DNA from: Clostridia bacterium
GTDB taxonomy: Bacteria > Bacillota > Clostridia > Oscillospirales > CAG-272
Direction: 5' to 3'
Assembly (NCBI GenBank): GCA_017961575.1
Contig: JAGCXA010000053.1
Coordinates: forward strand, 26,347-90,346
Length of the DNA: 64,000 nucleotides
The notes under the pieces were generated by a model. The model worked only from the letters and a program-made list of their open reading frames with translations. It did no database searches and was not told where the DNA came from. Position 1 is the stretch's first letter; each line of letters starts with the position of its first letter. Position numbers and translations under genes: made by a program. Shown in pieces: positions 7,355-56,643 of this stretch.

Positions 7355-8809
7355 ATGGAACGGCTGACCGAAGATTACCGCGAGAACGTGCGCGCGATCT
7401 CGCGTCTGCTCGCGACGGACGAGAGTTTCGACCTGATCGAGCGGCGGCTTCCCGTGGGGCGGGACGAGTTGACGCTTTTCTATATCGACGGGTTCGCAAA
7501 GGACGGCGCGTTACAAAAGCTGATGCAGTTCTGCGTCGGACTGCCGGGCACGGGTTCCGGGCGCGACGCGGCGCGGCGCTTCTCCGAGGCGGGGATCCCC
7601 TACGGCAACGTCGAGGTCACAGGCGACGCCGGGCGGATGGTCACGGCGGCGCTCTCGGGCGTCACGCTGATCCTCGGAAGTACGTTCGGGGACGAGGCGA
7701 TCCTCGTCGACGCGCGCGCCTATCCCGCCCGCTCGACCGACGAGCCGCAGAGCGACCGCGTGATGCAGGGCGCGCGGGACGGATTCGTCGAGACGCTGCT
7801 CTTCAACGTCGCCCTGATCCGGCGTCGGATCCGCGACCCCGACCTGCGGGTGAAGCCCCTGAATCTCGGCGGGCGCGCCCGGACCGACTGCGCGATCCTC
7901 TATATCGAGGGGCGCGCCGACCCCGCTTTCCTCGCCCGACTGACGAAGCGGCTTTCCGCCCTCCGTCCCGACTCGCTGACGCTCGGCTACGAGAGTTTGG
8001 CGGAACTGCTCATCCCGCGCCGATGGTTCAATCCGTTCCCGAAGATCCGGACGACCGAGCGCCCCGACTGCGCCGCCGCGCACCTTTGCGAGGGGAGCGT
8101 GATCCTGCTCTGCGATACCTCGCCGCAGGCGATGATCCTGCCGACCGGGATCTTCGATTTCCTCCAAGAATCGCAGGACTTCTATCTCCCGCCCCTGACC
8201 GGGTCGTACCTCCGGTTGGTGCGGCTTCTGACCTTTCTCGTCTCGCTCGTTCTGACGCCGCTCTGGTACCTGTGCGTCCGCTGTCCGTGGCTGCTTCCGG
8301 ATTCGCTTTCGTTTCTCGTCCCGGAGGAAGCGGGGCATTTCCCGATCCTGCTCCAACTCTTCCTCGTGGAGTTCGCCGTGGACGGGTTGAAACTCGCGAG
8401 TATGAATACGCCCGACCTGCTCGCCAACTCGATGAGCGTCATCGGCGGGCTGGTGCTCGGAGACCTCGCCGTCAAGGTCGGCTGGCTCTCGGGCGAGGTG
8501 ATCTTCTATATGGCGATCGTCGCCGTCGCCGGTTTCACCCAGCAGAATCACGAGCTCGGTTACGCGATGAAGTTCCTCCGGCTCGCCGTGATGACCCTGA
8601 CCGCCCTCTTTTCGTGGGTGGGGTTTCTTTTCGGGCTCGCCCTGATCCCCGTCCTGCTCGTCACCAACGCCGCGGTGGACGGGCGGCGCAGTTATCTCTA
8701 TCCCTTGATCCCCTTCAACGGACGCGCCCTCCTATCGCTCTTCTTCCGCCTCCCGAAATCCAAAATGCCGACCGCCCGCGCCCGCCGTCCCCGCGGCAAA
8801 GAAAGGTAA
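7355..8809 (+). CDS. Spore germination protein, GerA/SpoVAF family
   Basis: FYIDGF, GARDGFVETL..NVALIRRRIRD and TERPD motifs, C-terminal TM helices; GGAGG RBS before ATG 7355. Confidence 0.9.
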   Translation: MERLTEDYRENVRAISRLLATDESFDLIERRLPVGRDELTLFYIDGFAKDGALQKLMQFCVGLPGTGSGRDAARRFSEAGIPYGNVEVTGDAGRMVTAALSGVTLILGSTFGDEAILVDARAYPARSTDEPQSDRVMQGARDGFVETLLFNVALIRRRIRDPDLRVKPLNLGGRARTDCAILYIEGRADPAFLARLTKRLSALRPDSLTLGYESLAELLIPRRWFNPFPKIRTTERPDCAAAHLCEGSVILLCDTSPQAMILPTGIFDFLQESQDFYLPPLTGSYLRLVRLLTFLVSLVLTPLWYLCVRCPWLLPDSLSFLVPEEAGHFPILLQLFLVEFAVDGLKLASMNTPDLLANSMSVIGGLVLGDLAVKVGWLSGEVIFYMAIVAVAGFTQQNHELGYAMKFLRLAVMTLTALFSWVGFLFGLALIPVLLVTNAAVDGRRSYLYPLIPFNGRALLSLFFRLPKSKMPTARARRPRGKER

Positions 8810-8864
8810 CTCCCCGCCGCGAGAGAAAAGAGTACGCGCGAGCGTTGACGAGAAAAGGGGTACG

Positions 8865-9335
8865 TCCACTTTCTTGTAAGAAAGTGGAGCAAAGAACTTC
8901 AATAAAGGATTATTGAAGAGCAAAGCGGCGCGCCCCAATGGACTCGCGCCGTTTTGCGGTTTCAAAAACACAGCCGCAGTTGTTTGTCCTCCTCTTGCGA
9001 ATACAAACCGCCGCGCGGCGGGCTTCCGCTTTGTTCTGCTTATGTAAATAATTCTTTACATTTATACCAACGTTCGCCTCGTTCGCGCGCAGCAACGACC
9101 GGAAACATCCAAAAACCTAACCGCGCCAGCAGATGCCGCCTGACAGGCACAGGCAGATGCAGAATTCGCGCTTGCGATCCGAAGGCGTATTGGCATACGC
9201 CGAGAGGTCGCAAACGCGGATAGGAAACGAATTTGAATAAAAAGGAGAAACCCGCTCGCGTTTTGCGAGCGGGTTTCAACCTTAGCTGCGTTTAACAATG
9301 CGAAAAGATTTCACAGAGCGAAGTGCTTTAACAGA
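8865..9335 (+). repeat. Structured mosaic intergenic repeat, long copy 1 (modules A-C-D)
   Basis: Collinear similarity to the reverse complement of 55995-56460; several hairpins with compensatory changes. Confidence 0.8.
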
Positions 9336-25500: not shown

Positions 25501-26574
25501 TCAGAGCGCCGCGATCTTCTCCCCGAAGAAGCAGGTCAGGACGAGATACCCGACGTACAGACCGAGGAGCGCGAAGCCCTGCCATTTCATAAAGCGTTTT
25601 TTGATCAGCGCGGGAACCAGCGCGACGATCGCGGCGATCAGCGCGGCGGGAAGGTCGATCCGCCCGACCTGCGCCGTAACGGGGAGCGCCTTGCCGGAAA
25701 TCAGCCCGCAGATCGGCATGATCAGGGTCATATCCATAATGTTCGCGCCGATGATGTTGCCCGCCGAGAGCGACATCTCGCGCTTCACGACGGCGGTAAC
25801 CGTCGTGACGAGTTCGGGGAGCGAGGTGCCGACGGCGAGGATCGTCACGGCGATGATCCGTTCGGGCACGCCGACCGACTCCGCCACGTATTCCGCGCTA
25901 CTGACCAGGACGTTCGCGCCGACGGCGATCGCCGCCGCGCCGACGAGGAACAGGATCGCGTTCTTCGCCCAGAGCCGTCCGTTCGCCGCGGGCCGCGCGG
26001 CGACGCCGCCCTGCGCACCGTCCGCGGGAAGCGCGTCGGCGTCAAGTCCCCCCGCCTCGCTCTCGCCGGCGCGGACGCGCCTGACCGCTTCGACGACGTT
26101 TTCGGTCATCGCGGCGGCGAAGATCGCGAGCAGAAGCAGGTTCGGAACCAGCCCGATCTTCCCGGTGATCCCGAACGCGGCGATCACGCCCGCCGAGCCG
26201 ATGAACAGGCAGGATTTGAGCAGATAGTCCTTCCGCTTGATCGCGCCCGCCATGAAGATCAGGGCGATCGCGAGGATCATTCCGGTGTTTGCGGTCACGC
26301 TTCCGACGGCGTTGCCGATCGACATATCAATGTAGGCGGCGTCGCCCGTCACCCGCGCGTTGACGGCGGAAAACGCCGACACCAGCATTTCGGGGAGCGT
26401 GGTCGCCAGACTGACGATCGTCGCGCCGACGATCAGTTTCGGGACGCCCGACACCTCCGCCATCCAGGAGGCGGCGGAAACGAACCAGTCCCCGCCCTTG
26501 ACGATGACCGCGATCGACACGGCGAGGCAGATCAGCGCGACGGGCAGATTAACGATAGGAATTAACGACGGTAT
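25501..26574 (-). CDS. Calcium/sodium antiporter (YrbG/CaCA family); start uncertain (ATA 26574 or GTG 26520)
   Basis: Alpha repeats ATTLPE..GNAVGS and GTSLPEL..GNIIGANI; frame open up to a GGAAAGGA RBS. Confidence 0.88.
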   Translation of the reverse strand: MPSLIPIVNLPVALICLAVSIAVIVKGGDWFVSAASWMAEVSGVPKLIVGATIVSLATTLPEMLVSAFSAVNARVTGDAAYIDMSIGNAVGSVTANTGMILAIALIFMAGAIKRKDYLLKSCLFIGSAGVIAAFGITGKIGLVPNLLLLAIFAAAMTENVVEAVRRVRAGESEAGGLDADALPADGAQGGVAARPAANGRLWAKNAILFLVGAAAIAVGANVLVSSAEYVAESVGVPERIIAVTILAVGTSLPELVTTVTAVVKREMSLSAGNIIGANIMDMTLIMPICGLISGKALPVTAQVGRIDLPAALIAAIVALVPALIKKRFMKWQGFALLGLYVGYLVLTCFFGEKIAAL

Positions 26575-28438: not shown

Positions 28439-29073
28439 TGGGACTTCTGTCGATCGGTTCGTTCCTCGCCGAACAGTTCTTCGATCAGGAACTCCCGGCG
28501 TTCTCGAAGTTGCCGAATACGCTCCGCGCGTGGGAGTTCACGGTCGGGATCGGGCTGTTTCTGCTTGTTGTGACCCTCGCGGTCGGGTTCCTCGCCTATC
28601 GGCGGAGCGCGCCCGAACGCCTCGTGCGGGAACTCTTTGCCCGCAAGGTCTTCTCGCCCGACGCGGCGCTTTCCTGCGCCGATCTTTCGGTCAAACTCAC
28701 GCTCGCGCTTCGCTTCTCGCTGCACGATCGGTTTTCGGGCTTGCGCCGCTGCCTGCTCGTCGCCGGGGAAGCGCCCGTCGACCTTTCCAAGAAGTCGCGC
28801 GCCGAGCGCAAAGCCGCCAAGGCGGCGTCCGGCGAACCCCGCGTGAAAAATCCGTTCGTCGCGCTGAAACGCCGTCTCTTCCCGGATCTCTCCGAGGCGA
28901 AGTTCTACCTCGACCCCGACCGCGCCGACGAGGTCGAGCGCCGCTACGCCTCCGGCGTCGGCGTCACCCCGAAGGTCTTTGTTTGGACCGTCGCCGTCTC
29001 GGTCGTGCTGTTCTTCGTCCTCTGCCGCCTCACGCCCTCGATCCTGCAACTGATCGACAACCTGCTGAGTTGA
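28435..29073 (+). CDS. Hypothetical membrane protein (TM helix near each end)
   Basis: Overlaps the parB stop (translational coupling); two hydrophobic segments. Confidence 0.7.
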   Translation: MMGLLSIGSFLAEQFFDQELPAFSKLPNTLRAWEFTVGIGLFLLVVTLAVGFLAYRRSAPERLVRELFARKVFSPDAALSCADLSVKLTLALRFSLHDRFSGLRRCLLVAGEAPVDLSKKSRAERKAAKAASGEPRVKNPFVALKRRLFPDLSEAKFYLDPDRADEVERRYASGVGVTPKVFVWTVAVSVVLFFVLCRLTPSILQLIDNLLS

Positions 29074-29090: not shown

Positions 29091-29138
29091 GGGAAGGGAA
29101 GCGGAAGAAAACGAGGGGAGACGAAGGGGAGACGCTTT

Positions 29139-29235
29139 CCCGCTTTCTTGTAAGAAAGCGGGGCAAAGAACTTCAATAAGGGATTGTTGAAGTTGTGGCT
29201 CGGCTCGTGACTCGCCGAGCCACGGTTCTATAGCC
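29139..29235 (+). repeat. Module A three-hairpin repeat, copy 2
   Basis: cccgctttcttgtaagaaagcggggcaaagaacttcaataagggattgttgaag...cggttctatagcc. Confidence 0.85.
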
Positions 29236-29286
29236 ACCTCTTTGCTCGTTCTCTTTTCTTTTGTCCCCTTCGCTTTTGGTCTGTAA

Positions 29287-29714
29287 TCTCGTCGCGCGGT
29301 CGCGCGACATCTTGAGTTCCGCGCAAGCGGAACATATCGAAATTGCCGCCCCGGGGGGCGGCAATTATATCGAACGGCGCTCCGCACCGTATGTCGACAG
29401 GGCGCACACGCGCCCGCATCCTCTGTCTCTTTCGCGCGGCGTAGGGGTTCAGGGGTCCCCCGCCGCATATCGCGTTTGAGGGCAAACCGCCCGAAAACAT
29501 ATCGCGCGGAGCATATCGCGTGGAGTGCCGCAGGCACGAAACATATCGCGCGACCGCATAGCGGGCGCCTTCCCCCGTTCTCGTCGCGCGGTCGCGCGAC
29601 ATCTTGAGTTCCGCGCAAACGGAACATATCGAAATTGCCGCCCCGGGGGGCGGCAATTATATCGAACGGCGCTCCGCGCCGTATGTCGACAGGGCGCACT
29701 CGCGCCCGCATCCT
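29287..29714 (+). repeat. 136-bp direct repeat pair (29287-29422 and 29579-29714) built of hairpins joined by ATATCG linkers
   Basis: 3 mismatches between copies; the spacer carries four CATATCGCG motifs. Confidence 0.9.
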
Positions 29715-43429: not shown

Positions 43430-43650
43430 ACGGCGACGGATCTCTCCGTCGCCGTTCGCGATATGAGAGCCGACCGTCAAAAAACGGTCGGCTCTCGCGA
43501 TATGCAGGCGTGCCGAAGGCACGGTAAGGTGAACTTATGCGGCGGGGGACCCCTATCCGAGAACCCCCAAAACTCGACAAGCTCGTTTCGGGGAACCCCT
43601 TATCCGGGAACCCCCAAAACTTACTTCGTGCGTTTTTGGAAACCCCTCTT
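43430..43650 (-). repeat. CATATCGCG-linked hairpins plus a 47-bp-period tandem repeat
   Basis: cgcgatatg at 43457 and 43496 between perfect hairpins; tatccgRgaacccccaaaact at 43554 and 43601; ggggtcccccgccgcat shared with about 29452-29468. Confidence 0.75.
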
Positions 43651-43671
43651 GCCCGCGTGAATTGACGTCTT

Positions 43672-43747
43672 CGCGAACGCTCGCCGTCGTGAATTGCAAA
43701 CTGCGTTTGCATGAATTGAAGCCCGCGCCGAACGGCGCGGGCTTCAT
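43672..43747 (-). repeat. Module B, copy 2
   Basis: Reverse complement of 29728-29803 with 1 mismatch. Confidence 0.9.
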
Positions 43748-43826
43748 TATATAGAACGAGGAAACGCGGACAAAAGCAAAGCAAACGGAGAAAGTTGCGT
43801 TTATGGAATTGCGCGAGCTCGTTCCG

Positions 43827-43944
43827 AGCCTTCCCCTTGAGGGGAAGGTGGTGCGGAGCGCCGGATGAGGTGGAGTTTGGCTGCCGATTTGTCCGGCTCC
43901 ACCTCATCTGTCACTTCGTGACGTCTTCTCCTCAAGGAGAAGAC
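43827..43944. repeat. REP/MITE-like palindromic element
   Basis: Terminal hairpins cttccccttgaggggaag and cttctcctcaaggagaag; internal inverted repeat gatgaggtggag/ctccacctcatc. Confidence 0.75.
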
Positions 43945-43993
43945 GTGGTACGAAAGCAACGGAACAAAAAGCAAAGCGAACGGAAAAAGAACC

Positions 43994-44130
43994 GGCTATA
44001 GAACCGCAAAACGGCGAGAGTCGAAAGGGCTCGCCGTTTTGCTTTATTATTCCTTTTAATGAAGTTCTTTGCCCCGCTTTCCTCACCGCGCCCGCCCGTG
44101 GGGTGCGGGCGACGCCGTCAAGAAAGCGGG
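43994..44130 (-). repeat. Module A, copy 3 (hairpin-1 loop expanded)
   Basis: Reverse complement: cccgctttctt-[GC-rich insert]-ggaaagcggggcaaagaacttc...gcaaaacggcgag..gact-ctcgccgttttgcggttctatagcc. Confidence 0.85.
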
Positions 44131-44170
44131 CGTATCCCCTCATCCCCGCCACGGATGACCGCAACGGTCG

Positions 44171-47100
44171 TCACTTATTCGTTTCGGTCAAAATCGGTTT
44201 GGACAGGACGCCTTCGCGCGTCAGCCGATAGGAATCGGTCCACTTATCGTCGCCGGTACGCCAAGCGCCGGGTCCTTCCCACGAATGCTTCTCGTCCGCG
44301 TTATGGAACGGTCCGAACCCGTTCTGCCGTGAAACGTAGAGAGAGAGGGTCAGGGTATGCGCGCCCTTTTCCGGGGCGCCGAGCGAGAGCCGATAGGGCG
44401 GATACACGACCCGCCCGACCCGTCGCCCGTCCAGATCCACGGCGATCAGCGCGCCGCGATAGTGCGGTACCGTGAGCGTCAGTTCTCCTCCGTTTGATTC
44501 AAACGGGATTTCATAGCGGAACACGCCCGAGAAGAACGGGAACCCGATCCGGGTAATATCGTCAAAGCCGACGACCTCCGGCTTTTCGACGAGTTTTGTC
44601 TCCTCCCCGTTGACCGAAACGCCGAACTCTCCGAGCAGATACGTCCGTTCCAGCGAGACGCGCTTCGCGTAGGGGAGCGTTACGGTCAAGCGGTTTTCTC
44701 CGCGTTTCACGCCCGGCAGAGGAATGCATTGTATACACCGATCAACGTAAAACCCCTCCGGATTCCGGTCGACCGTGACGCCGTTCCATTCGACCGTCGC
44801 AACCTCCGCGTCTTCCAAAGCGAGCGAGGCGGCGGGGAGTTCCACGTCCGACAAAACGGTATAACGCAGCGTGACGAGGTGCTTCGGGACCTCGGGGGGA
44901 AGCACCCACGGCTGCGCCGTCGAACCGAGCGCGTCCCAGCGGTTTCCGGACAGCCAACCGAGCTCGCGCTTCAAGAGCGTGTCGATCCGAAGGATCTCGG
45001 TCTTCGGGCGGAAGGGACCCCGGTCGAGGGAATACTCCGCATAATCCAGCACCAGCGCGTTCGGTTCCGAGAGCGAATAGGGAACGCGCGCGGGCAGGGA
45101 GAGCGCGGCGCCGCCCCCCGCTTTTCGCGGAGCGTCGACCGTTTCGGACTCGATCGCGCAGGGCGCCGGCGACAGTTTGACGAGCAGACTGTCGCAGTCG
45201 TAGAACCGGCGGGAAAAGACGGTCTTCCCGCTCTCGTACCGACAGGGAAGAGGAGAGATCTCACCCGTCAGGGTATCGTAGAGTTCGGCGCGGTAACCGC
45301 CGCGCACCGAGACGGTCACGTCGGAAAACGACGAGACGTCTTTGTTGTAGGGATCTCTGCCCTGCGCGAGGAAGAGCCAGCGGTCGTCCCCGTCCTGACG
45401 AAACTGCGAGAGCAGACGGTCAGAGAGCGCGCCGGACGCGTCGCGGATCTCGATCTCGTGCGCGTCGGACAGGGCGGCGAGCAGGTCGCTCTTTTCAAAA
45501 GCGAGCCGTTCGCATTTTTCCCAAAGCGCCCGCCCGCGGGAAGAGGGCAGGGCGTTCTCGTAGAGCGGCGCTTCGCCGAGAAAGATCAGGCGCCCGCCCT
45601 TCGCGGCAAAGGTTTCCAGGCGCTCGAGGGTCGAGGTCCGAAGCGTTTCGCATCCCGGCACGATCACGACGTCGTATCTCATTTCCCCGACGGGGAACGG
45701 CGCGTCGGGCGTCGGGCAGAGCGAGGGAAGAAGCGACTCCGCGATAAAGTCGAAATCAAGCGCGCCGAAGAGCAGCCATTCGGTCAGATTCGAGAAGCGT
45801 TTTTCGAGTTTTTCCCGGACCGCCGCCGTTTGTTCGGCGGGGCCCCAATGGAGCCAGTAGCTCTCGACCGGATGGATCACGCCGACGCGCACGACGGGCT
45901 TCCCGCGTGTCAGCGCGACGTTTACGCGCGCAAAGTGATCCTCGACGTAACGGTATTCGGGATACCACGGAGATTGATAATTGATCGAGGCGGGATAATC
46001 GCGCTTTGCTTCTCCCTTCATCGACACCCAGGCGAGGTGCGGTACACGCACCGTCACGCCGAGCGCCGCCTGCCAGTCTCCGTGCAGTTTATGCCCGCGG
46101 AAATCGTAGTCCCAACCCGTCACGCCGTACAGTTCGCTGATCATTCCTTCGCGTCCGTATTGGTGAACGGCGGACTGCGCCTGCTTCGCCGTCGTGAATT
46201 CGTGCCGGGCGCAGAGCATATCGATCCCCGGCAATTGGAAGGAGCGATACGACCGCATCGCCTCGCCGAGCGCGGCGGTCTGGCTTTTCAGGGTTGGTTC
46301 CTCCATCATATGCCCCGTCAGCATCAGTCCGTTTTTGTCGCACCACGCGCCGATCTGATCGGCGAACGCCGACGCGAACCGTTCGGCGACGTGGTCGTGA
46401 TAGAGGTACCGGATCCGCGAGACCCGCCCGTCGGGCAGTTCCCAGATCAATTCGGGCAGGCGGTCGAGGAGCGATTCGCCGTAGGCGGCGAAAAAGGTCT
46501 CTTCGAGATCGCAGGAGAAGGGGAGGGTCACGTCGCGGTCGCTTTTCGCGAAGGGCAGAACCGTCTTCCTCGTGAATTGCGGCTCGTCGGTGAAAATCGC
46601 CGGAACGGTTTTTCCGAACGACGAAGAGAGACGCCGCTTGTAACTTTCGTGCGTCACCTCGATGAAACGCGCCACCGCCGCCGGATCGAGCGTGTTCAGA
46701 TAGGTCTGATTGTTGAACCAGGGATTTTCGAGCGGCGTTTCGAGATAAGCGTAGCGGATCTCCTCACCCGACGCCGGAGTCTCGACTTCGGCAAGCCGAC
46801 GGTAGGAGGCGAGTTCGCCCCGGGAGTTTAAGCGGATCGCGTAGCGGGCGAGCAGTTTGCCGTTCCCCGCCCGCTTCGCCGCGGCGCTCGAATCGGACAA
46901 CCCTTCGGCTTTTTCACCCTCCCGGTAGGGGGTTTTTGTGAAAAGCAGGGTGCGTTGCCGGTAGCGTTCGTCCTTCGTCACAAGTCCGCCCGCCGCTCCC
47001 GAGGGCCAACGATCTTCGTCGTAAAGCCAGGCGAGTTGACCGTCCTTTTCGGATTTGTCGACGCAGGCGGATACGAGGTCGAAGAACTCGTCGGAGAGAT

Positions 47101-55994: not shown

Positions 55995-56460
55995 CCGTTG
56001 ATGCTTTTCGCTCTGTAACTGTTCTCTGCATAGCAAAACGCAATAGAGGTTGAAACCCGCTCGCGGTCGCGAACGGGTTTCTTCTTTTTGTTTGTATTTT
56101 TGTTTTCCTCTCGCCGTTTGCGATCCCGTCGCCGTCAAATCCCGTTTGCGCGTCGTTCGTAAACTCGCTCCTTCAAACGGGTTTTTGGGGCGACACCACT
56201 TCACGAAAACGCCCCACCGGGGCGTTTTCGCTCGCTAACCTCTCGCAGTACGTAGATACAGCTTCGGATCGCAAACGACGACCCTGCACTCGCCTGCGCG
56301 CGGCAAGGCGGCATTTGCTGGCGCGGTTAGGTTGAAAGGCGACCGATCAAAGTCGCGGCTATAGAACCGCAAAACGGCGTCAGTCGAAAGGGGACGCCGT
56401 TTTGCTCTTCCATAATCCCTTATGGAAGTTCTTTGCCCCGCTTTCTTTCAAGAAAGCGGG
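55995..56460 (-). repeat. Structured mosaic intergenic repeat, long copy 2 (modules A-C-D)
   Basis: Reverse complement is collinear with 8865-9335; the module D hairpin with T-tract (about 56052-56095, + strand) may terminate dnaJ. Confidence 0.8.
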
Positions 56461-56478
56461 ACGTCTCCCTCTCGTTCC

Positions 56479-56643
56479 TCAATCCTTTTTCTTCTTACAA
56501 TCGTACGGACAAGAGGAGCAGCCGCAGGAACAGGAGCCGCCTTTCTTGCGGGCGCGGATGGTGAAAAAGAGAGCGAGCGCGACCGCGGCGACCAGCACGG
56601 CGACGACGATCACGGTAGCAAAATTCTCTTGCAACCACGCCAT
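56479..56643 (-). CDS. FeoB-associated Cys-rich membrane protein (54 aa)
   Basis: MAWLQENFATVIVVAVLVAAVALALFFTIRARKKGGSCSCGCSSCPYDCKKKKD directly after feoB; below the ORF-track size cutoff. Confidence 0.85.
   Translation of the reverse strand: MAWLQENFATVIVVAVLVAAVALALFFTIRARKKGGSCSCGCSSCPYDCKKKKD

Follow-up and report, generated by a model that had tools for sequence, protein, structure and literature searches.

In this work, we analyzed Module A, a repeated three-hairpin element first noticed in a 64,000-nt stretch of DNA from an uncultured Clostridia bacterium of the order Oscillospirales (contig JAGCXA010000053.1, forward-strand positions 26,347 to 90,346; the whole stretch is called the window and is numbered from its first letter). 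Module A forms the core of a modular, interspersed non-coding repeat that spans ~150-200 nt. Gene 3' ends gain and lose this repeat, which is able to overwrite the ends of open reading frames (ORFs). It is a new family of the same kind as the repetitive extragenic palindromes (REP) and bacterial interspersed mosaic elements (BIME), the BOX elements and the MITEs (miniature inverted-repeat transposable elements), and it is not part of the RAYT system. An original prediction, made from the letters of the window, had offered two alternatives: a non-autonomous mobile element read by a trans-acting nuclease, or an RNA motif of 3' untranslated regions (3' UTRs). The mobile-element alternative is preferred here because of (i) the filled and empty sites at orthologous loci, (ii) the replaced ORF ends, (iii) the unrelated functions of the host genes, and (iv) the patchy occurrence among related genomes. 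On balance, we hold with somewhat more belief than doubt that Module A is a mobile 3'-end element of the REP/BIME, BOX and MITE kind.

Copies, modules and folding

The genome holding the window (G000) is a 1.875-Mb assembly of 67 contigs, 59.7% GC and 94% complete; its contigs carry Cn labels, and the window lies on C27. A search with the pattern of the hairpin-1 3' arm plus the adjoining linker gave 38 places, seven of which were dropped by eye as coding or chance matches. The resulting 31 copies of hairpin 1 with linker lie at 29 loci, at two of which a partial copy stands beside a full one. A full-length covariance model (R1), trained on 24 standard copies, gave 29 full-length matches in the same assembly, 25 of them scoring 81-133 bits. 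Contig ends truncate three copies and are found at ~330 nt or less from three full ones; the assembly breaks at these copies, and the count for G000 is therefore a floor. What had been described as a four-copy element thus has at least 31 copies. The four copies of the window, at 8865-8976 (+), 29139-29235 (+), 43994-44130 (-) and 56357-56460 (-), are all present and alignable, and the element is longer than these coordinates, a leader and a trailer also being common to the copies.

The modules follow each other in the order purine-rich leader, hairpin 1, linker GCAAAGAAC, hairpin 2, hairpin 3, tail and pyrimidine-rich trailer (..CTTTGCTTTTGG..). The leader is built from degenerate ..GGRNACG units, hairpin 2 is AT-rich, and the three hairpins are the minimum-free-energy (MFE) folds in nearly all copies. 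Hairpin 3 comes in at least three types: type a, GCAAAACGGCG..CGCCGTTTTGC, has a short or a long loop, while types b and c have GC stems that vary around the loop TCGTGACTC. The tail is either GGTTCTATAGCC or GGTTTCAAAAAC, and the spacer between the arms of hairpin 1 is GA, GTA, TTCGG or a 34-nt nested hairpin. Every combination of hairpin-1 variants, hairpin-3 types a, b and c, and both tails is found among the G000 copies, which are therefore mosaics. As had been predicted, the linker is present in all four window copies and the tail CGGTTCTATAGCC in three, the copy at 8865 carrying CGGTTTCAAAAAC instead. The four hairpin-3 stems do differ, and GACT lies in the loop region of all four; however, it falls in the predicted MFE loop of 14 of the 24 standard copies, not of all. 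The parts of the window copies are listed here.

8850..8864 (+): copy 1, purine-rich leader ending ..GGGGTACG; the GerA-family gene upstream has its stop at 8807-8809
8865..8897 (+): copy 1, hairpin 1 (8865-8888, TCCAC..GTGGA variant) and linker GCAAAGAAC (8889-8897)
8898..8918 (+): copy 1, hairpin 2, AT-rich
8920..8957 (+): copy 1, hairpin 3, type a, GCAAAGCGGCGCG..CGCGCCGTTTTGC
8958..8969 (+): copy 1, tail, GGTTTCAAAAAC variant; a weakly conserved trailer runs to ~9010
29096..29138 (+): copy 2, leader, long and purine-rich, in degenerate ..GGRNACG units; upstream gene stop at 29071-29073
29139..29171 (+): copy 2, hairpin 1 (29139-29162) and linker (29163-29171)
29172..29194 (+): copy 2, hairpin 2, with one G-T pair
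29195..29223 (+): copy 2, hairpin 3, type b, 10-bp GC stem, loop TCGTGACTC
29224..29300 (+): copy 2, tail GGTTCTATAGCC (29224-29235) and pyrimidine-rich trailer ..CGCTTTTGGTCTGTAATCTCGTCG
44131..44150 (-): copy 3, leader; stop of the 1055-aa upstream gene at 44171-44173
44064..44130 (-): copy 3, hairpin 1, its loop holding the nested 34-nt hairpin (44130-44073), and linker (44072-44064)
44043..44063 (-): copy 3, degenerate segment in the place of hairpin 2, no fold
44006..44042 (-): copy 3, hairpin 3, type a, long loop CCCTTTCGACT
43945..44005 (-): copy 3, tail GGTTCTATAGCC (44005-43994) and trailer GGTTCTTTTTCCGTTCGCTTTGCTTTTTG..
56461..56478 (-): copy 4, leader, directly after the stop (56479-56481) of a 55-aa Cys-rich ORF behind feoB
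56428..56460 (-): copy 4, hairpin 1 (56460-56437) and linker (56436-56428)
56407..56427 (-): copy 4, hairpin 2, C-G in place of the A-T of copy 1
56369..56405 (-): copy 4, hairpin 3, type a, long loop
56330..56368 (-): copy 4, tail GGTTCTATAGCC (56368-56357) and start of the trailer

Structure-preserving change, on which the original prediction had relied, is supported for hairpins 1 and 3. Of the four window copies, the first has CCAC..GTGG in hairpin 1 and the other three have CCGC..GCGG. Across the 31 copies of G000, 96.6% of its cells are paired (45-67% in slid controls) and double-sided changes occur in 3 of 11 pairs, amounting to 16 cells against 4.5 ± 1.6 after shuffling, with none of 500 shuffles as high. 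For hairpin 3 of types b and c, double-sided changes were found in 6 of 10 pairs over 14 copies (26 cells versus 7.6 ± 2.3; 0 of 500 shuffles) and one pair shows four pair types; three rows of this alignment are gap-misaligned and count against the structure. An alignment of 110 distinct hairpin-1 sequences from G000 and ~20 other genomes, which was fitted to the model and so leans towards structure, gave double-sided changes in 6 of 10 pairs (149 cells versus 59 ± 13; 0 of 500 shuffles), and in it a C-G pair of G000 becomes U-A in AT-rich lineages (56 versus 51). The covariation claimed for hairpin 2 is seen between the copies at 8865 (CAATAA..TTATTG) and 56357 (CCATAA..TTATGG), but the copy at 44130 does not fold, and the signal in G000 consists of one double change and two single mismatches. 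No family of Rfam 15 matched the window at gathering score; seven copies compared with Rfam at a permissive E-value met only weak, unrelated small RNA families (best 30.8 bits, with a cut-off of 60).

Several other interpretations of the parts were tried and rejected. The 34-nt nested hairpin is not an independent element, as it was found only in hairpin-1 loops (6 copies), apart from one chance match in a coding sequence. A small ORF starting at a TTG in the hairpin-1 loop was discarded because the loop variants TTCGG and GTAA abolish it, the latter being an immediate stop. A helix between leader and trailer closing the element was likewise dropped, the duplex energies of cognate and non-cognate combinations being -29.0 and -28.7 kcal/mol; no copy-specific complementarity between leader and trailer was detected either (longest complementary run 5.08 versus 4.99, permutation p = 0.35). 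Nor was a CRISPR link supported: the assembly holds no CRISPR-like array, none of its 4 short tandem arrays contains hairpin 1, and the copies are dispersed singly. The trailer resembles a decayed, inverted hairpin 1 plus linker weakly (mean z 1.2; above 3 in 2 of 24 copies), most clearly in the GGTTCTTTTTCCGTYCGCTTT subfamily.

Two side observations concern the ends of the element. In a relative of 47% GC (G014), the copies L048, L057, L060, L062, L069 and L070 have an extra 5' module of ~150 nt, ..GATTTTGAGCAGAAATCG..GTACGAGGGTACGTCGAGAGGGCGAAAACGGCGATAGTAAAC.., and this module holds GTACGAGGG-type units as does the leader of G000; the leader therefore belongs to the element. In the window, a weak second R1 match (27.4 bits) lies ~135 nt downstream of copy 3, at 43773-43859 (-) or C27:70119-70205, and looks like a solo trailer (..CTCCGTTTGCTTTGCTTTTGTCC..).

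Gene 3' ends with and without the element

Genes of G000 were called with our own crude caller based on ORFs and codon usage (1404 genes, 86.5% coding) and then re-checked frame by frame. At 27 of the 29 loci, the stop codon of an ORF that lies on the same strand and has a good coding score is found inside hairpin 1 or shortly before it (P = 4.5e-8 against a null of 0.446); the loci on C50 and C26 do not show this pattern. The gap between the stop and hairpin 1 has a median of 19 nt and ranges from -13 to 66 nt, and at 11 of the 27 loci it is ≤15 nt, presumably within reach of a terminating ribosome. The ORF ends at the TGA of the hairpin-1 loop in C6 (atpC) and C44_206 (rlmL). In the window the gaps are 56, 66, 41 and 19 nt, in agreement with the ~20-65 nt proposed previously. 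The further claim that copies lie only at convergent junctions, occupying 4 of 7 in the window, has to be abandoned: the copies at 29139 and 56357 lie between co-directional genes, so that 2 of the 7 convergent junctions hold one. Genome-wide there are 14 convergent, 10 tandem and 3 contig-end junctions plus the 2 exceptions, with an enrichment of convergent ones (14 of 24 versus an expected share of 0.32, P = 0.007). The upstream proteins, 28 of which were scanned, have Pfam matches in 24 cases and unrelated functions (among others UxaC, AtpC, UppP, MatE, SpoVAC, LysA, PheT, GerA, FeoB, ComM, NifU, HolA, LysS, RlmL and TopB).

Comparison of orthologous loci revealed both filled and empty sites. 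The LysS proteins of G000 and of the four relatives closest to it in the first genus draw (protein identity 76-79%) share the same C-terminal residues; behind the gene, those four have a plain GC hairpin with a T run and no Module A. Among public genomes, a LysS locus 96% identical (L163) is without the element, another (L164, 94%) carries the leader and, up to the point where its contig ends, the left arm of hairpin 1, and hairpin 1 with linker was found at none of 100 further lysS loci. The native end of rlmL is ..YQYFKN[GD]xKK, as found in both G019 and G156; behind it, G156 has a GC hairpin with a T run. The rlmL ORF of G000 continues through the leader (..EKNEGNARFL) and takes its stop from the TGA of hairpin 1, that of G103 extends past hairpin 1 and the linker and ends at a hairpin-2 TAA, and in G122 a decayed remnant of the element is still the source of the stop. 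The element behind the 1055-aa gene of copy 3 also follows the orthologues of G103 and G122 (nucleotide identity over the gene 82% and 77%, respectively) and is missing in G156; its sub-modules differ among G000, G103 and G122.

Other features were noticed around the copies. Directly behind the fused feoA-feoB there is a 55-codon ORF (56479 to ~56646, - strand, ending ..CGCSSCPYDCKKKKD) that the gene caller missed; its product resembles a small FeoB-associated membrane protein rich in Cys. A second repeat family consists of arrays of short, GC-rich hairpins whose stems differ and which are spaced by ATATCGA (variants ..CTCATAAC.. and ..AATTCA..); the arrays occur downstream of copy 2 (29290-29560) and also at C3, C19, C23, C27:1-130 and C44:1-100, often directly after a Module A trailer. 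Tandem repeats of 46-47 nt on GGGGTTCCCC..GGGGGTTCCCGGATAA were found at ~43430-43570 (-) of the window, C41:7100-7250, C35:11000-11140 and C21:33412, and in C19_260 and C35 such units are nested inside the hairpin-3 loop of a Module A copy. Copies 1 and 4 and the C42 copy have a third intergenic sequence in common on their downstream side, ..AACCTAACCGCGCCAGCARATGCCGCC..GCAGGCGAGTGCAGGGTCGTCGTTTGCGA.. (9150-9190, 56270-56345 and C42:17490-17560), and a similar stretch follows lysS in L163, which belongs to a relative without Module A.

Occurrence across lineages

We searched samples of 150 genomes each from the genus, the order and the class; these relatives are metagenome-assembled genomes (MAGs) of uneven completeness. 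The full-length model R1 gave only weak matches in relatives because hairpin 1 and the linker alone are shared, and the survey was performed with R2, a 49-position model of this core. Since up to 40 candidates were scored per genome in the genus survey, copy counts in relatives are lower bounds. In the genus, 34 of the 150 genomes have matches, about ten of them with 6-35, and the 116 without any include the four nearest to G000 in the first draw. Matches were found in 11 of 150 genomes of the order, spread over 7 of 30 families and reaching 13-15 in two genomes, and in 2 of 150 genomes of the class, one of which, a genome of 1.2 Mb and 28-30% GC, has 21.

The part conserved across lineages is the upper stem of hairpin 1, CTTTCTT-loop-AAGAAAG or a T/A-rich form of it, with the flank CAAAGAAC-TT, or more fully (G)GCAAAGAAC-TT. 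This core of 24 nt (7 nt in each of the two stem arms, 8 nt in the flank CAAAGAAC, and TT) persists in genomes of 28% to 60% GC belonging to different orders. The base of the stem varies with full compensation, as in G253, a genome of another family of the order, where the pairs CTTCC/GGAAG, CTTAC/GTAAG, CCTAC/GTAGG and GTTTC/GAAAC occur. The leader, hairpins 2 and 3, the tail and the trailer are lineage-specific modules. The position behind a same-strand ORF is less strict elsewhere than in G000 (17 of 29 copies in G014, 7 of 10 in G241 and 4 of 8 in G253). By eye, 4 of the 8 copies of G253 (L150, L152, L154 and L156) are antisense and directly upstream of gene starts, and the context therefore differs between lineages; the N-termini encoded downstream of these four copies resemble glutamate 5-kinase and RqcH. 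By exact pattern, the core was also found in 6 viral contigs. Two of these contain it as a compact symmetric doublet, in which one end is hairpin 1 with linker and the other end the reverse complement. In plasmids and phages, blastn gave no match to the element.

Alternative readings and known systems

Module A arrives as DNA at the extreme 3' end of a gene, in the orientation of that gene, and at times replaces the last codons and the stop. In a mobile element, hairpin 1 and its flank would be the putative site read on one strand by a trans-acting protein, other than a Y1/RAYT transposase, that copies or maintains the element. Once in place, the element would become part of the transcribed 3' UTR, and the mRNA may be protected or ended by its stable hairpins; this would explain the persistence of gene-oriented copies, kept as harmless or useful 3'-UTR hairpins. 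The conservation of the 24-nt core across orders, together with the lack of RAYT in 9 of 11 multi-copy genomes, indicates that a protein other than a RAYT probably reads this core. It is tempting to speculate further that hairpin 1 with CAAAGAAC is the recognition site of an undescribed, non-Y1/RAYT trans-acting enzyme that copies hairpin-ended non-coding elements to gene 3' ends, at or just behind the stop and in gene orientation, with a targeting coupled to translation or transcription termination and shared by several orders of gut Clostridia and phages; to this full version we give little credence.

A number of observations weigh against a mobile element. First, the nuclease that had been proposed was not found. 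Y1/RAYT (PF01797) has no match in G000, at its 94% completeness, and is present in 2 of the 11 multi-copy genomes (G014 and G097); the nine without it include one rated 100% complete. No hairpin 1 with linker lies within ~1.5 kb of the four Y1 genes of G014 and G097 (best 9.7 bits), and TnpB (PF07282) is absent from G000. Accordingly, neither an IS200/IS605-derived element nor a TnpB guide RNA was recognized in searches for TnpA (Y1) and TnpB in G000 and for Y1 beside the copies of G014 and G097. No parental autonomous insertion sequence (IS) was found with Y1 and TnpB searched in G000 and the DDE transposase families not searched, and a search for the Y2/IS91 family gave no match, although its control was silent too and it carries no information. 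Second, no terminal inverted repeats were found in the G000 copies, the trailer as an inverted half being a weak signal. Third, no clean empty site in a near-identical strain, from which a target duplication could be read, was obtained; a metagenome scan with the LysS C-terminus gave nothing closer than 81%. Fourth, the orientation lock and the closeness to the stop codon are stricter than expected from passive tolerance of insertions. Finally, four further findings would equally fit selection on RNA: (i) two convergent junctions hold one copy per gene, tail-to-tail, ~250-300 nt apart and each oriented as its gene, which also argues against a replication-strand bias; (ii) the copy-3 element is kept across species at 77-82% nucleotide identity while the remaining spacer is unalignable; (iii) G-T pairs exceed A-C mismatches in hairpin 1 (28 versus 6, in the model-fitted alignment), a weak hint that this particular strand is the folded one; and (iv) the hairpin-3 loop TCGTGACTC is constant over variable stems.

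The main rival is accordingly a dedicated RNA function, in which hairpin 1 with GCAAAGAACUU and the hairpin-3 loop would be bound by an RNA-binding protein or RNase setting mRNA stability, 3' processing or translation termination, and the copies would have been recruited by selection and not by selfish spread. We consider it unlikely, while giving it a serious hearing. It would account for the location on the strand of the upstream gene, for the start at a median of 19 nt after the stop, with 11 of 27 gaps at ≤15 nt, and for the individual copies of the two convergent gene pairs, whereas the host genes have no function in common and 116 of the 150 sampled congeners, the four nearest of the first draw among them, do without the element. 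The covariation of stems beneath conserved loops and the 28 to 6 excess of G-T pairs speak for this reading too. In G103, however, translation of the rlmL ORF passes through hairpin 1 and the linker, and the hairpin therefore cannot stay folded on that mRNA. Similarly, retention of the element behind the same gene in three species agrees with an RNA function, but the antisense location of 4 of the 8 copies of G253 just upstream of gene starts does not. According to an excerpt of PMC12306157, ribosomes can be stalled just before the termination codon by nearly half of the E. coli REPs, and such an effect is therefore known for repeats, which adds to the case for RNA. Metatranscriptomes were also inspected: 10 runs hold 5-12% of the sampled words, and the four examined gave contigs mostly 90-99% alike and located on conserved genes; these contigs are therefore from relatives and do not resolve the transcription or the 3' ends of the element. 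In two of the runs (X4 and X6), the bin 43581-44161, which holds copy 3, has contig depth while its neighbouring bins are empty.

It is improbable, in our opinion, that Module A is a transcription-terminator cassette, i.e. a hairpin cluster that ends transcription of the upstream gene and is copied between gene ends by recombination. The element does occupy the place of a plain terminator-like hairpin in relatives, and its type-a hairpin 3 has an A tract, a GC stem and TTTTGCGGTT; yet hairpin 3 follows the simple rule for intrinsic terminators in 0 of 24 copies, and the three copies that were flagged were so only at the small tail hairpin. The homologous module of G014 is a strong GC hairpin followed by TTTTTTGTTT, canonical-looking by eye, and hairpin clusters acting as terminators are the topic of PMC8355165, as judged from an excerpt. 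Against this, 9 of the 24 copies are followed, within the next 230 nt, by a separate terminator-like site, hairpin 1 with linker, the part conserved across orders, has no T run, and the conserved GCAAAGAAC is left unexplained. Even less can be said for a double-stranded or cruciform DNA site for a host protein (a nucleoid, topoisomerase or recombination factor), a role earlier proposed for BIMEs: despite the near-perfect DNA palindrome of hairpin 1, the intergenic position and the convergent enrichment (14 of 24 versus 0.32, P = 0.007), we regard it as very improbable, given that a dimeric duplex-binding protein is unlikely to tolerate an arm spacer varying from GA, GTA or TTCGG to a 34-nt nested hairpin, and that both the strictness with which copies share the strand of the upstream gene and the surplus of G-T over A-C point to the reading of one strand.

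To return to the mobile 3'-end element: in uncultured Clostridia of the ruminant gut, dozens of housekeeping genes have 3' ends rewritten by this family, and the results are altered C-termini (rlmL, atpC), replaced plain terminators and broken MAG assemblies. The defined hairpin and the sets of carrier and non-carrier genomes provide the means to look for the putative reader protein. Besides, a structured cassette placed at a median of 19 nt behind the stop codon offers a natural test of the effect of such structures on bacterial mRNAs.

A full-text literature search with four strings of the element, supplements not covered, gave no microbial match, single 12-nt strings occurring in mouse, cell-culture and adenovirus studies. 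Families of stem-loop sequences have been catalogued across bacterial genomes (PMC1590033, PMC2267715); judged by the descriptions in excerpts of these reports alone, they resemble Module A in being repeated, foldable intergenic sequences, often in 3' untranslated regions.

Closer parallels are found in three known systems. The REP/BIME and REPIN-RAYT systems of Enterobacteria and Pseudomonas, as portrayed in excerpts of PMC3116915 and PMC3337134, share with Module A the short extragenic palindromes in tens of copies, often behind stops and at convergent junctions, the compensatory changes in stems, the existence of singlets and inverted doublets, and the mosaic, BIME-like composites. In contrast to REPs, Module A has an AT-rich upper stem and a conserved 3' flank of 8-9 nt. 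Its 5' flank, ..NACG, also differs from the tetranucleotide of REPs. Doublets, the form of REPINs, are the exception in G000, where they occur at 2 convergent junctions and most copies are singlets, and the Y1/RAYT gene that accompanies REPINs is absent from 9 of the 11 multi-copy genomes.

The BOX elements of Streptococcus pneumoniae (PMC3049150, in excerpt) are similar by analogy only: they too are modular composites in variable combinations, intergenic, with a stable predicted RNA fold, a Firmicute host and no transposase of their own. Module A has a far tighter tie to the stop codon. Furthermore, variation in BOX concerns the number and order of modules (boxA, boxB in variable number, boxC), whereas the variable parts of Module A are alternative hairpin-3 and tail types and the optional hairpin nested in hairpin 1.

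Finally, MITEs such as RUP and the Correia elements (PMC3184786 and PMC10969869) are likewise small, non-autonomous and multi-copy, show filled and empty sites between relatives and can fuse with or truncate the ends of ORFs. In contrast, neither terminal inverted repeats nor a parental IS were found for Module A; the nearest approach to such repeats is provided by the two symmetric copies on viral contigs, in which hairpin 1 and the linker stand at both ends.

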